DNA of 64,000 nucleotides from an uncultured delta proteobacterium (GTDB lineage: Bacteria > Myxococcota_A > Polyangia > Haliangiales > Haliangiaceae), in the NCBI GenBank assembly GCA_963743525.1, contig CAVUQH010000002.1:288001-352000 (forward strand), written 5' to 3'. Below are positions 27,348-33,748 of the stretch, piece by piece. Made by a program: the position numbers and the translations under genes. Each line of letters opens with the position of its first letter. Position 1 is the stretch's first letter. A model generated the notes under the pieces. That model saw only the letters and a program-made list of their open reading frames with translations. It ran no database searches and was not told the origin of the DNA.

Positions 27348-28259
27348 GTGCGCGCCGTCGCGCTCGGCCTCTATCCCGGCACTGCCGATGGCGACTACGA
27401 CCGGATGGTCAACGAGATCGCCGCGGTCGGCGCGACGCACGTCGCCCTGGTGGTCAGCTGGGCGCAGCACGACGTGCGCTCCGTGCGCATCGGATCGCGC
27501 CGGGACCAGACCGTCCCCGACGCCCTGGTCCAGCGGCTGGCCGACCGCGCCCGCGACCGCGGCCTCGCCGTCATCCTGTTCCCCATCCTGATCCTCGACC
27601 GCAACCGCCCCGGCGAGTGGCGTGGCACCCTGCGCCCGACCGACCCGGCCGTCTGGTGGCGCCAGTACGAGGCGTTCATCCTCCACTACGCCGACCTCGC
27701 CGCCGCCACCAGGGCCGATGTGCTGTTCGTCGGCAGCGAGCTGGGCTCGACCGAGGGCTGGCGCGAGCGCTGGCAGCACCTGGTTGGCCAGGCCAAGCGG
27801 CGCTTCACCGGCCGCATTGCCTACAGCGCCAACTGGGACCACTACCAGAAGGTCAGCTTCTGGCGCCGGCTGGACATCCTCGGGGTCACCGGCTACTTCG
27901 AGCTGACCCGCGACCACGACGCGAGAGTGCCCGAGCTGATGCGCGCCTGGGCCGTCGCGCGAAAGGCGCTGCTGGCCTTCGCCGCCGCGCGGCCCGGCCC
28001 TGCCCTGTGGCTATCCGAGGTCGGCTACGTCAGCCGCGACGGCGCCGCCACCCGACCCTGGGACTACACGCTGTCGGCCAAGATCGACCTCGAGGAGCAG
28101 CGACGCTGCTACGAGGCGCTGCGGCGAACCTGGACCGGCACCACCGAGTTGGGCGGCGTGGTCATCTGGAACTGGCTGGGCACCGGCGGCCCCCGCGACG
28201 GCGGCTACACCCCGCGAGGCAAACCCGCCGAGCGCGAGCTGCGAACCTGGTTCCGCTAG
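27348..28259 (+). CDS. Glycoside hydrolase family 113-like TIM-barrel protein
   Basis: WRGTLRP, VGSEL, YSANWD, GYFEL, LSEVGY, YTPRGKPAE. Start uncertain. Confidence 0.75.
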   Translation: MRAVALGLYPGTADGDYDRMVNEIAAVGATHVALVVSWAQHDVRSVRIGSRRDQTVPDALVQRLADRARDRGLAVILFPILILDRNRPGEWRGTLRPTDPAVWWRQYEAFILHYADLAAATRADVLFVGSELGSTEGWRERWQHLVGQAKRRFTGRIAYSANWDHYQKVSFWRRLDILGVTGYFELTRDHDARVPELMRAWAVARKALLAFAAARPGPALWLSEVGYVSRDGAATRPWDYTLSAKIDLEEQRRCYEALRRTWTGTTELGGVVIWNWLGTGGPRDGGYTPRGKPAERELRTWFR

Positions 28260-28310
28260 CCGGACGCACCCGAGCGAGGGCGAGACGTACTCGCCCCCGC
28301 CCCGGCCCGC

Positions 28311-28628
28311 TCACCGAATCAGCACGAACAACGTCGCCGTCACCCGGTCGAAGCGATCCATCAGCCCCGCGTCCAGCGCCTCCACATAGCCCATCGCCTC
28401 CGCGACCCGCAAATTCGCCACCGTCTCCCGCGCCGAGCCCAATGCACTGTCGTACCGCGCCCGCCGCGTACCGCCCCGACTGCCCTCGCCCTCGGCCAGA
28501 TTCAACACGATCGACATCGCCGACCGCCGCAATTGCCTGGCCTGGTCCTTGTCGTACGTCTCGATCTGCCCGGCCAGCCCCCTGACGTCACGAACCAACT
28601 CGATGCAAACAGCCTGAATACGAAGCAT
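28311..28628 (-). CDS. Four-helix-bundle protein (23S rRNA-IVP/bAvd-like family)
   Basis: QLRRSAMSIVLNLAEG...ALGSARE family signature; AGGAGAGG RBS before ATG 28628. Confidence 0.9.
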   Translation of the reverse strand: MLRIQAVCIELVRDVRGLAGQIETYDKDQARQLRRSAMSIVLNLAEGEGSRGGTRRARYDSALGSARETVANLRVAEAMGYVEALDAGLMDRFDRVTATLFVLIR

Positions 28629-28664
28629 CCGATCCTCTCCTTGCGAAAGTGAGGCATCCCCACC

Positions 28665-28748
28665 CGCCCAGCGCGCAGGCGGGGTCAAGAGCGCGAAGCG
28701 GCGCGCGCTCCGCGCGCGCGAACTCTTGACGCCGCCGAGCACTGGGCG
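28665..28748. repeat. Long imperfect inverted repeat (hairpin) upstream of the four-helix-bundle gene
   Basis: cgcccagcgcgcaggcggggtcaagag (28665-28691) pairs with ctcttgacgccgccgagcactgggcg (28723-28748); inner gcgcgcg-ctc-cgcgcgc stem. Confidence 0.85.
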
Positions 28749-28836
28749 ACGATCGAAACTCACGAGCGCGAGCCAGCCCCACCACCGCGGGGAAGCGAGC
28801 CGCAACCCCGCAACCCCGCGGCCCCGGTCCCAGCCC

Positions 28837-29340
28837 CGGAGACGGACCCAGACCCACACGCGGAGACGGACCCGGAGACGGACCCAGACCCGGACCCGGA
28901 CCCGGACCCGGACCCGGACCCGGACCCGGACCCGGACCCGGACCCGGACCCGGACCCGGACCCGGACACGGACACGGACCCGGACCCGGACCCGGACCCG
29001 GACCCGGACCCGGACCCGGACCCGGACCCGGACCCGGACCCGGACCCGGACCCGGACCCGGACCCGGACACGGACCCGGACCCGGACACGGACCCGGACC
29101 CGGACCCGGACCCGGACCCGGACACGGACCCGGACACGCCCCCGGACGCGGACACGGACGCGGCCCCGGACACGGACACGGACACGCCCCCGGACGCGGA
29201 CACGGACACGCCCCCGGACACGGACACGGACACGGACACGGACACGGACACGGACCCGGACACGCCCCCGGACGCGGCCCCGGACACGGACACCGGCGCG
29301 GACCCGGCCCCGGACGCGGAGACGCGCCCCCGCCCCCGCC
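28837..29340. repeat. ~80-unit hexanucleotide tandem array (GGACCC core; GGACAC, GGACGC, GCCCCC variants)
   Basis: Near-pure (ggaccc)n over ~28890-29120, degenerating at both ends. Confidence 0.97.
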
Positions 29341-29341
29341 C

Positions 29342-30532
29342 CTACTCGACCAGCTTACCCATCCGCTGCCACTGCTGCCCGCCGGCATACGACGGCCGCG
29401 TGGACCACCAGATGAACAACGCCTTGCCCTTGATGTTCTCGATCGGCACCGGGCCCCAGATCCGCGAGTCGCTCGACTGATCGCGGTTGTCGCCCATGAC
29501 GAACACGTGATCGGGCGGAACCACGTACTCCATCTCGCGCTGGCACTTCCCCGGCGCAGCCCGCTCGTTCACCTCCACCAGCTGCCCCTCGGCAGCGCGC
29601 GTCTGCGCCGGCGTGCGGCCCGGCTCGTCGGCGCCACGACAGCTGGGCTGGATGAAGGTCTCGCCCGCGCGGTTGACCCGGCGCCACCGGGTCGAGCTGT
29701 CGGGAAAGTCGTGCGGCCCGGGATCATCTCGCTTGGGTGACCGGACCGGGTCGTAGTAGGTGGTGTACGTGGCGTCGCCGTGGTGCTCGATCCATTTGCT
29801 GCAGCGACAGCTGGCCCACTGGTCGCCGGGCTTGGCCTTCGGGCACAGCAGCGACCCGTCGCGCGCCTGCTTGCCCACGCCCTGGGCGATCACCTCGCCC
29901 TGCTCCTCGAAGTCCCAATAGGCGCACGGGCTGGGGTCCAGCGTCTGCTGCACCTCTTCGCCGTTGACGAACAGCGTGTCGCAGCGGATCTCCACGTGGT
30001 CACCAGGCAGCGCCACGATCCGCTTGATGAAGTCCTTCTCCGGCTCGCACGGGTAGACGAACACCGCCACCTCACCGCGCCGCGGCTTGCGCCAGTCGAA
30101 GATCTTGGTGTTGGTGAACGGCACCCGCACGCCGTAGAGGAACTTGTTGACGAAGATGTGGTCGCCGATCTGCATGGTCGGCACCATGCTGCCGGACGGA
30201 ATCTTGAACGCCTCGATGACGAAGGCGCGCAGGAGCAGCGCGATCATCACCGCCATGCCGATCGACTCGGCGTACTCGCGCAAGGTCAACTTGCGGGCGA
30301 ACGACAGGTGTTCGTCGACCAGCTCGTCGAGGACGACCATGTTGGCGCGCAGCGCATCGCCGTCGCCCTCGTCCGCCGCGGTCGCCACCGCGTTCAGCCG
30401 CGCGCTCATGCCCTCGGCGATCGAGGTCGGCAGCCGGTCGCGGTGCCGGCGCAGACCGCGGCGAGCCTCGCGCGCGAGAGCCCTGGCTTCGCGGCGAACC
30501 TGGCGGTCCATCCTGGCAGCAGAAATCGCCAT
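29342..30532 (-). CDS. lepB: Signal peptidase I (paralog 2, Cys-rich insertion)
   Basis: FKIPSGSMVPT, DFIKRIV, MGDNRDQSSDSR. Confidence 0.93.
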   Translation of the reverse strand: MAISAARMDRQVRREARALAREARRGLRRHRDRLPTSIAEGMSARLNAVATAADEGDGDALRANMVVLDELVDEHLSFARKLTLREYAESIGMAVMIALLLRAFVIEAFKIPSGSMVPTMQIGDHIFVNKFLYGVRVPFTNTKIFDWRKPRRGEVAVFVYPCEPEKDFIKRIVALPGDHVEIRCDTLFVNGEEVQQTLDPSPCAYWDFEEQGEVIAQGVGKQARDGSLLCPKAKPGDQWASCRCSKWIEHHGDATYTTYYDPVRSPKRDDPGPHDFPDSSTRWRRVNRAGETFIQPSCRGADEPGRTPAQTRAAEGQLVEVNERAAPGKCQREMEYVVPPDHVFVMGDNRDQSSDSRIWGPVPIENIKGKALFIWWSTRPSYAGGQQWQRMGKLVE

Positions 30533-30536
30533 CTCG

Positions 30537-31937
30537 TCAGCGCACGATTTTGCCCACGCGTTGCCACAAGACGCCACCCGCGCGGGCCGGCTTCTGCGAC
30601 CACCAGATGAATAGCGCCTTGCCCTTGATGTTCTCGATCGGCACCGAGCCCCACTTGCGCGAGTCCTTGGAGTTCTCCCGGTTGTCGCCCATGGCGAAGA
30701 CGTCGCCGTCCGGAACCACATAGGCGACCTTGGGACCACACGGTCCCGCCCCCGGCGCATCGGCCGGAGCAAGCTTCAGGTGGGCGCGGGCGGCGTAGCG
30801 CTCGTCGGCTGTGATGTCACCGTCGGACGCCTTGCAGGTGGCCGGGTCCGGGAGCCACGACAGCACGTCGGCGGCCGACAGGCAGTCGGCGATGCGGCAC
30901 CACGGCTCGGCGCGGTATTTCTCCGACAGCTCGTGGGCCAGTGCCGCCGGCGACTCGCCCTGCAGTACCCGCCGCACCGCCGCCATCTTGTCCGGCCCGG
31001 ACGGCTCGACCGGGGTCCCGTCGGGCGCCAGCGCGTCGGCCATCCCCGGTCGCGGCAGCGACGGGAAGTCGTTCTCGCCGTAGTACAGCTGTTCCTCGCC
31101 GTGGCCCGGCCGCGACGGCAGATACGACCAGTAGGTTGCCCCCGTCCGCGGCTGCGCGCGCCGCTCCTCGCGCACCGGGCGGTCGGCGTCGTAGTAGACC
31201 AGGTCGGTCCGGCCCGACGGCAGATGCTCGGTGTACGCCGCCGCCGGACACAGGCCCCAGTGGTCGCTGTGACCGTAGTACTGGCACTTGGGGTCCCAGC
31301 CGTTGGCGTTGAAATCCCAGTAGGTGACGTGCGGGTCGGCCAGCGTGGTGTTGACCGGCTTGCCGTTGACCCACAGCTCGTCGCAGCGGACCTCGACGGT
31401 GTCGCCGGCGACCGCAACCACCCGCTTGATGTAGTCCTTGTCCGGATCGCACGGGTAGCGGAAGACGATGACGTCGCCCCGCTCCGGCTGGTGCCAGTCG
31501 AAGATCTTCTTGTCCGAGAACGGCAGCCGCAGGCCGTAGACCAGCTTGTTGACGAACAGGTGGTCACCGACCTCCATGGTCGGATACATCGACCCGGACG
31601 GGATCTTGAACGCCTCCAGCACGAAGGCGCGCAACATCAGCGCGATGATCACCGCGGCGCCGATCGACTCGACGTACTCGCGCATCGGCGACTTGCGGGT
31701 GAACGCCAGGTGCTCGTCGACCAGCTCGTCGAGACCGACCAGCTCGGTGCGCAGGACGTCGCCGTCACCGCCGGTGCGCGCCGCATCCAGGGCGTCGGCG
31801 CCCAGGCGCAGCTGGTCGCGGATCCCCGGCGGCACCCGGTCGCCGTGGCCGCGCAGCCCGCGACGCGCCTCCTTGGCCAGCGCGCGGGCCTCGCGCTCTA
31901 CGCGGCGGGCGATGCGGCTGGCGGGCATGACGGCCAT
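30537..31937 (-). CDS. lepB: Signal peptidase I (paralog 1, large Cys-containing insertion)
   Basis: FKIPSGSMYPT, DYIKRVV, MGDNRENSKDSR. Confidence 0.93.
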   Translation of the reverse strand: MAVMPASRIARRVEREARALAKEARRGLRGHGDRVPPGIRDQLRLGADALDAARTGGDGDVLRTELVGLDELVDEHLAFTRKSPMREYVESIGAAVIIALMLRAFVLEAFKIPSGSMYPTMEVGDHLFVNKLVYGLRLPFSDKKIFDWHQPERGDVIVFRYPCDPDKDYIKRVVAVAGDTVEVRCDELWVNGKPVNTTLADPHVTYWDFNANGWDPKCQYYGHSDHWGLCPAAAYTEHLPSGRTDLVYYDADRPVREERRAQPRTGATYWSYLPSRPGHGEEQLYYGENDFPSLPRPGMADALAPDGTPVEPSGPDKMAAVRRVLQGESPAALAHELSEKYRAEPWCRIADCLSAADVLSWLPDPATCKASDGDITADERYAARAHLKLAPADAPGAGPCGPKVAYVVPDGDVFAMGDNRENSKDSRKWGSVPIENIKGKALFIWWSQKPARAGGVLWQRVGKIVR

Positions 31938-31948
31938 GGATCGGCTAC

Positions 31949-33748
<1,800 letters not shown>

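Follow-up and report, generated by a model that had tools for sequence, protein, structure and literature searches.

A dispersed four-helix-bundle gene cassette with hexamer arrays and a predicted single-strand DNA promoter hairpin in a Haliangiaceae genome

The window analyzed here is a 64,000-nt stretch of contig CAVUQH010000002.1 (positions 288,001 to 352,000) from an uncultured delta proteobacterium of the Haliangiaceae (assembly GCA_963743525.1; 8.55 Mb, 97% complete; genome G000). At positions 28260..29341 of the window, two convergent protein genes are separated by about 1.08 kb whose contents are read on the minus strand. The initial annotation had described this interval as a hexamer array starting right after the lepB stop, an 84 nt hairpin, a ribosome binding site and a gene for a 105 aa protein, and we found every part in its place, with the array directly 3' of the TAG. 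The features are as follows:

29342..30550 (5' end approximate), minus strand: lepB-like signal peptidase I gene from the ORF list, its TAG stop forming the left boundary
28819..29341, minus strand: hexamer array, mainly (GGGTCC)n grading into GTGTCC, GCGTCC and GGGGGC, from TRF, composition and word counts
28774..28818, minus strand: G-rich linker, resembling the linker of a few other copies
28643..28773, minus strand: conserved leader preceding 17/17 copies, from nhmmer and alignment
28665..28748, plus strand (the gene's template strand): imperfect 84-nt hairpin with a two-armed top, a predicted fold from DNA folding
28726..28731, plus strand: TTGACG, -35-like, in the non-template arm of the folded hairpin, with partner GTCAA at 28684-28688
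28748..28753, plus strand: -10-like GACGAT, whose A-11 is the first base left unpaired by the fold; TACGAT, TACCAT or TACCCT in other lineages
28649..28653, plus strand: GTGAG, which can pair with CTCAC at 28759-28763 and close a bubble of about 11 nt; predicted RNA start
28634..28642, minus strand: Shine-Dalgarno AAGGAGAGG, from the sequence
28311..28628, minus strand: four-helix-bundle gene, 105 aa (TIGR02436 / PF05635; Xcc0516- and Avd-like fold), from the ORF, profiles and a structure model
28278..28296, unstranded: small 3' hairpin with a 7-bp stem and no T tail; comparable short hairpins follow many copies
27348..28259, plus strand: convergent flanking gene (GH113-like in the initial annotation), its stop forming the right boundary

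The name lepB is that of the first reading of the sequence, and the gene is identified here by its ORF and an orthologue rather than by a profile; the orthologue, 87% identical, lies in G001, a genome of the same genus in which the GH113-like protein has an 82% identical counterpart. In the same part of the window (29342-32204), a lepA-like gene precedes a tandem pair of signal peptidase I-like genes, and both members of the pair are kept in G001. The small hairpin at 28278-28296 is also present as claimed, the loop quoted for it being the plus-strand reading.

The assignment of the 105 aa protein to the four-helix-bundle (IVP/bAvd-like) family holds. Both profiles match above their cut-offs (TIGR02436, 44.1 bits vs 24; PF05635, 42.9 bits vs 33.8), and the structure model (pLDDT 96) folds into a four-helix bundle with helices at 4-23, 27-49, 52-78 and 87-104. 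Among known folds, the best two matches are 2GSC (Xcc0516; TM 0.89) and 2RLD (BT_0352; TM 0.83), and the model aligns to bAvd with a TM of 0.71 at 10-12% identity. The cassette proteins are basic, with net charges of +2 to +10. By analogy with 2GSC, the homopentamer described in the available text of PMC4990558, the Avd-like protein is likely a basic pentamer, and after the example of bAvd it probably binds the single-stranded cassette. The four codons reported as overused in the gene all exceed their genome-wide frequencies: among 104 codons, TTG occurs 6 times and AAT, AGT and ATT twice each, compared with 0.56, 0.17, 0.15 and 0.25 per 100 codons, respectively, in our own gene calls. GC3 is 0.84 in the gene vs 0.91 in the genome. 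The median pairwise dN/dS over 136 pairs of cassette genes is 0.29, and the four-helix gene is under purifying selection. A search for related loci by protein patterns found seven in metagenomes and none in genome contigs or viral contigs.

The array has a period of 6 over 28819-29320, with 83.7 copies and 83% matches by TRF, and its minus strand contains 245 G, 174 C, 102 T and 1 A, in agreement with the G-rich strand of the initial annotation. Its length is taken from the assembly: contigs of four public runs partly cover the gene and the leader, and none of them spans 28828-29331, the records apparently being cut at that repeat. This absence from the coverage of the public contigs would fit an assembly artefact, yet the array is degenerate and graded, and comparable arrays border homologues in numerous independent genomes, which makes an artefact hardly credible. 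The repeated word varies among copies (GGGTCC, GCGCCC, GGGGAC, GGGGAT, GTGCTC, GTTTGG and GCGGGC) and tracks the gene tree by eye, with GGGTCC-type words in the clade of the studied copy and GGGGAC or GGGGAT in another. Depending on the copy, the array lies upstream of the gene, downstream of it or on both sides. An array is present within 700 nt of 17/18 TIGR02436 genes vs 242/7088 genes genome-wide in our own crude gene calls. The expected enrichment of arrays near TIGR02436 genes is thus borne out, while the word is not fixed and arrays flank RAYT and HNH genes too, and are therefore not specific to the four-helix gene. The mRNA-sense strand of the array folds more stably in only 11/17 arrays; among the 17, G4-like runs occur on the mRNA-sense strand in nine and on the opposite strand in two.

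Hexamer arrays also accompany other elements of the genome. A second multi-copy element carries an HNH endonuclease gene with a 6/12-mer repeat inside it and a GCGGGC array ahead of it, its frames apparently broken (G000:C12:674885-676644, L419, and about nine similar sites, e.g. C2:119272-120491). An IS3-like element has inserted into hexamer arrays on at least three occasions (G000:C8:780690-781900, C8:916940-918180 and C2:120470-121730).

Of the 18 TIGR02436 genes in the genome, 17 are close homologues of the cassette type, with 54-97% amino acid identity to the studied copy. A leader of 125-130 nt, found with nhmmer, precedes every one of the 17, and additional matches consist of one decayed copy and one fragment; the leader hairpin is therefore linked to four-helix loci at all cassette copies, a linkage that the initial annotation had proposed examining. 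Convergent junctions hold 13 of the 17 copies, compared with about 18% expected, and orientation relative to the replication strand is not significantly biased (12/17, p = 0.14). Homologues occur in 32/60 relatives, often in many copies each. In several relatives (L008, L009, L013, L017, L065, L066, L068 and L080), paired convergent or divergent four-helix genes each have their own hairpin leader. The 18th TIGR02436 gene (G000:C3:251250-252440) is of another, intervening-sequence-like type, surrounded by inverted GTTGAC/GTCAAC arrays and without the leader. There is no transposase or reverse transcriptase in cis in the cassette, and the 97% complete genome has no match to RVT_1 (PF00078). The view that repeat, hairpin and gene form one dispersed multi-copy unit without such enzymes in cis is supported by these 17 copies, by the lack of RVT_1 matches and by gain and loss relative to G001.

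Cassettes have been gained and lost between related genomes. In G001, with flanks that are 79-95% identical, 16 of the 17 sites can be compared and none has an intact cassette: nine are without a trace (gaps down to 0 nt), three have a REP-like palindrome and four have relics. The lepB/GH113 junction, where empty sites had been sought in relatives, is one of the relics, with 65 nt in place of 1077. Because it keeps 21 nt of the 5' end of the leader, a cassette stood at this site before the species split. G001 has cassettes at two other sites, one of them internally deleted, and for one of the two the matching G000 site is clean. Over leader and gene, the studied copy is 97% identical to a copy on C22 whose site in G001 is empty, a match that suggests recent copying of leader and gene without the upstream array. 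No clear target duplication was seen at the 16 sites compared with G001 or at the clean G000 site, a test limited by 10-13% divergence of the flanks, and no terminal inverted repeats, other terminal repeats or circle were found. A GTAG/TAG target motif was considered and proved uninformative: at convergent junctions of this genome, 57% of stop codons are TAG, and GTAG at the stop is itself frequent (23%).

The cassette could alternatively be a neutral passenger of repeat-rich intergenic DNA, spread by array recombination and decaying, its hairpin and arrays having no joint function. The majority of the approximately 96 array sites in the genome have no four-helix gene, relics are common and words differ between copies, as such a passenger would have it. 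However, array recombination does not fit the several empty G001 sites without any array, down to the 0-nt gap, and neither the dN/dS of the gene nor the covariation of the leader across lineages is that of a decaying bystander. We consider this explanation very unlikely.

The core stem at 28665-28748 is highly stable as RNA (-62.7 kcal/mol, z = -3.4, with 0/200 shuffles as stable). As DNA, the fold of the plus strand pairs TTGAC with GTCAA and stops at -12, so that the unpaired stretch begins at A-11. The two arms are unequal. On the template strand, the upstream arm has A-11 in 28/28 and T-7 in 27/28 distinct arm pairs, and other lineages show complete TAnnnT boxes; the gene-facing arm instead carries G at -7 in every pair (28/28) and a GGGTGG-like sequence at the -10 position, with variable positions between. 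Duplex DNA therefore holds a gene-facing -35 without a -10, while the folded single strand holds both. In five arm pairs, TTGAC is kept on the gene-facing arm, which is also the search anchor, and the other arm departs from it; this is as expected if the -35 box is read mainly on the template strand, as is generally the case. Stem positions beside the boxes are paired in 26-29 of 29 distinct hairpins by several pair types, indicating covariation. The top loops on the plus strand are mostly GNA triloops, a stable DNA motif, with five copies including the studied one deviating in the first loop. Folding energy slightly prefers the template strand in 16/17 copies, by 0.1-4.4 kcal/mol, and the GTGAG/CTCAC pairing that closes the bubble belongs to the minimum-energy fold in just 5/17. 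With a G at -12 and a non-template spacer of 16 nt, the promoter of the studied copy may be weak. The same boxes make a possible duplex promoter pointing away from the gene. Rfam returned a best E of 1.8 for the studied locus, far below gathering, and nothing for five phage and IS loci.

From these sequence features, the hairpin is best read as DNA, a predicted single-strand promoter on the template strand of the gene, rather than as an RNA leader. The initial annotation had joined hairpin and repeat in one unit; the linkage to the gene stands, and the opposite strand, as a single-stranded promoter, fits better than its RNA reading. On balance, we think it probable that this is a transposase-less cassette whose hairpin is a promoter used only on the single-stranded template strand. 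The folded plus strand would present a paired -35 and an unpaired -10, and RNA polymerase would start about 25 nt before the ATG.

A hairpin acting instead in a read-through mRNA, where it would gate translation and be bound by the Avd-like pentamer for autoregulation, seems unlikely to us. Copies do lie behind a co-oriented gene in 16 of 17 cases (two read by eye), and the leader folds well as RNA, yet the conserved bases coincide with the promoter boxes. The stem covers the Shine-Dalgarno in many distant relatives but leaves it outside in the subfamily of the studied copy. In addition, bAvd binds an RNA stem-loop via flipped-out bases, according to the available part of bioRxiv 10.1101/2023.10.23.563531; the same hairpin, however, occurs without a four-helix gene in phages and at IS ends. 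The two roles are compatible, since RNA started inside the 3' arm would escape the lock.

Distant relatives provide a second view of the two arms. Among 65 distant leaders, 34 were anchored (24 distinct), with a few anchors wrong and the copies related rather than independent. The GG-N10-GC sigma54 spacing is split over the arms, the upstream arm carrying the second G in 23/24 and the gene-facing arm the A in 22/24, and rpoN is present in 58/61 genomes. In G015, all seven copies examined have the ATG 10 nt past the box and no Shine-Dalgarno, and they appear leaderless from the predicted sigma54 start. Across 48 long distant hairpins, isolated mismatches on the mRNA strand are A-C in 80 cases vs G-T in 36, and C-T in 77 vs A-G in 33; although the copies are related, this skew favors folding of the other strand, and it argues against an mRNA hairpin, as the mismatches are mostly not of the G-U kind. 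A conserved mismatch, when repaired, moves towards the sigma54 consensus, which also argues against action in mRNA. Sigma54 normally requires an activator even on opened DNA, as stated in the accessible portion of PMC7057263.

The hairpin is also found away from four-helix genes. A pattern of the 3' arm located it in a Comamonadaceae record (L154 / L183:14130-14260), ahead of an unrelated gene, a CX5R phosphatase-like ORF; 34 of the 38 GTDB matches to this arm lacked the partner arm and were discarded as chance. In viral contigs, 120 matches to the boxed arm have the partner arm upstream in three and downstream in none, and a stricter viral scan added one further genome, giving four small phage genomes (L417, L403 (=L309), L220 and L415 (=L201/L322)). 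A Microviridae capsid gene is present in three of them and a Rep_trans initiator gene in the fourth. Each of the four carries the hairpin between genes, on the coding strand and with the predicted polarity, an outcome of 1 in 16 by chance for this sample of four. The -10 boxes are canonical (TACGCT, TACACT, TATAGT and TATGAT), and the phage hairpins share the signature TTGAC..CGAGCAC..TAnnnT. In the virions of these phages the packaged strand is the coding one, so the promoter fold would form on the very strand that occurs by itself, where it would prime second-strand synthesis. The phage genomes are likely single-stranded, and the sequence makes the hairpin a candidate RNA-polymerase-primed minus-strand origin of the Microviridae and the Rep_trans phage. 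A literature search combining all key terms returned no paper on RNA-polymerase priming in Microviridae. The protein of the cassette has no match in the viral contigs.

Followed from the Comamonadaceae hairpin, further instances lie just past IS256 and IS110 transposase genes and a relaxase gene, and also in front of an IS21-like gene (L184:5990-6110; L277, L278 and L279 near 2001; L197; L251; L404; L408). The L184 version is matched by 59 plasmid records; plasmid matches H21 and H22 are below significance for the L154 query, with H21 showing the hairpin by eye. In PLSDB, the best plasmid match to the cassette hairpin has an E of 0.1. A linear Streptomyces plasmid carries a related hairpin roughly 600 nt from its terminus (L280:3001-3110).

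Occurrences downstream of IS110, IS256 and relaxase genes would suit a hairpin that is solely a priming or nuclease-recognition signal (sso/ssi, primosome site or HUH target), with the gene expressed by read-through and the boxes serving primer synthesis or pointing away from the gene in duplex. The RNA made in the four phages would be antisense to the genes and so a primer only, and the conserved internal mismatch GAGCAC/TGCGC falls in the spacer, where sigma70 reads little. In the cassette, by contrast, a strong Shine-Dalgarno and an ATG follow the predicted start, and the apparently leaderless G015 copies begin at the predicted sigma54 start. We judge a role limited to priming or recognition to be quite improbable.

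With the hairpin as a single-strand promoter, its RNA would be the mRNA and, after the example of Frpo, would probably also prime second-strand synthesis on an excised single-stranded intermediate. That intermediate might be cut and joined in trans, for which array-flanked RAYT (Y1 HUH) enzymes would be the best candidate. The genome has 12 Y1_Tnp matches, nine over the cut-off. RAYT genes lie behind hexamer arrays at seven sites (G000:C2:231772-233300 and six others), two of which have a nearby CTGAGC..GTCGAAGG palindrome; this REP-like palindrome is found also in G001 cassettes and at three empty sites. The link of RAYT genes to cassettes via arrays and palindrome is suggestive only. The Avd-like protein might bind the single-stranded cassette, and the arrays might move together with the gene and lengthen by slippage. 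A fuller picture, a minimal mobile single-stranded DNA cassette that combines a fold-back promoter/primer shared with single-stranded DNA phages and IS ends with an Avd-like ring recognizing arrays and recruiting a host or RAYT nuclease, is conceivable, though we hold it only tentatively.

The closest precedent for the hairpin is Frpo/ssi of F, ColIb-P9 and pESBL, where, in the available sections of PMC9849209, PMC11541004 and PMC12672017, an imperfect stem-loop rebuilds -35 and -10 from one strand and the duplex is proposed to be silent; Frpo is described there as both promoter and primer site (PMC9849209, PMC12672017). The cassette strand likewise folds into a stem-loop with -35 and -10 aimed at the gene, and a gene-facing promoter is absent from the duplex sequence. 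In contrast to Frpo, the cassette is chromosomal, multi-copy and GC-rich, drives a four-helix gene, has relatives with a sigma54-type version, and lacks both a conjugative leading region and plasmid homology better than E 0.1. The pT181 sso is an RNA-polymerase-primed single-strand origin, as given in the accessible text of PMC5714925. These origins and the cassette have in common a one-strand hairpin for host RNA polymerase, and the phage homologues of the hairpin would be of this kind; the cassette hairpin differs in its chromosomal setting without a Rep gene. The minus-strand origin of M13 is likewise primed by RNA polymerase on a single strand.

The protein belongs to a known family, with profile scores above cut-off and a fold close to 2GSC and 2RLD, while the cassette is not an intervening sequence, DGR, IS/MITE or REPIN, and is Frpo-like without being Frpo. 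Unlike the ORF-bearing 23S rRNA intervening sequence, in the part of PMC4990558 available, it lies between two protein genes, has no rRNA match or enclosing inverted repeats and has a single upstream array; its gene, with a strong Shine-Dalgarno and under purifying selection, differs from the decaying Coxiella intervening-sequence ORF of the same source. The protein shares its fold and basic charge with bAvd (4DWL, 8UB7; bioRxiv 10.1101/2023.10.23.563531, in part), yet DGR components are missing from the genome in that there is no reverse transcriptase match and no template or variable repeat. IS elements, MITEs and mobile insertion cassettes differ in that no transposase in cis, terminal repeats or clear duplication were found for the cassette at 16 sites. 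The cassette resembles REPIN/RAYT and IS200/IS605 elements, as the available text of PMC6006769 presents them, in being non-autonomous and intergenic, in its preference for convergent junctions and its one-strand hairpin, with array-bearing RAYT genes in trans; it differs by carrying a gene and promoter and by lacking a GTAG-footed REP pair at its ends. A strict REP match was found in 0/17 copies, with degenerate ones seen by eye. In mainly open literature, without supplements and in part as excerpts, we found no published description of the cassette.

Stand-alone four-helix-bundle (IVP/S23p) genes occur widely and lack an explanation. If they are carried by transposase-less cassettes that are switched on only in single-stranded DNA, the function of these genes becomes directly testable, and the shared hairpin would point to an unrecognized signal for priming in Microviridae and at the ends of IS110 and IS256. 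If the reading is true, single-strand promoters would reach from plasmid leading regions to chromosomes as a cross-phylum family with sigma70 and split-sigma54 forms, and the orphan TIGR02436 family would gain a function.
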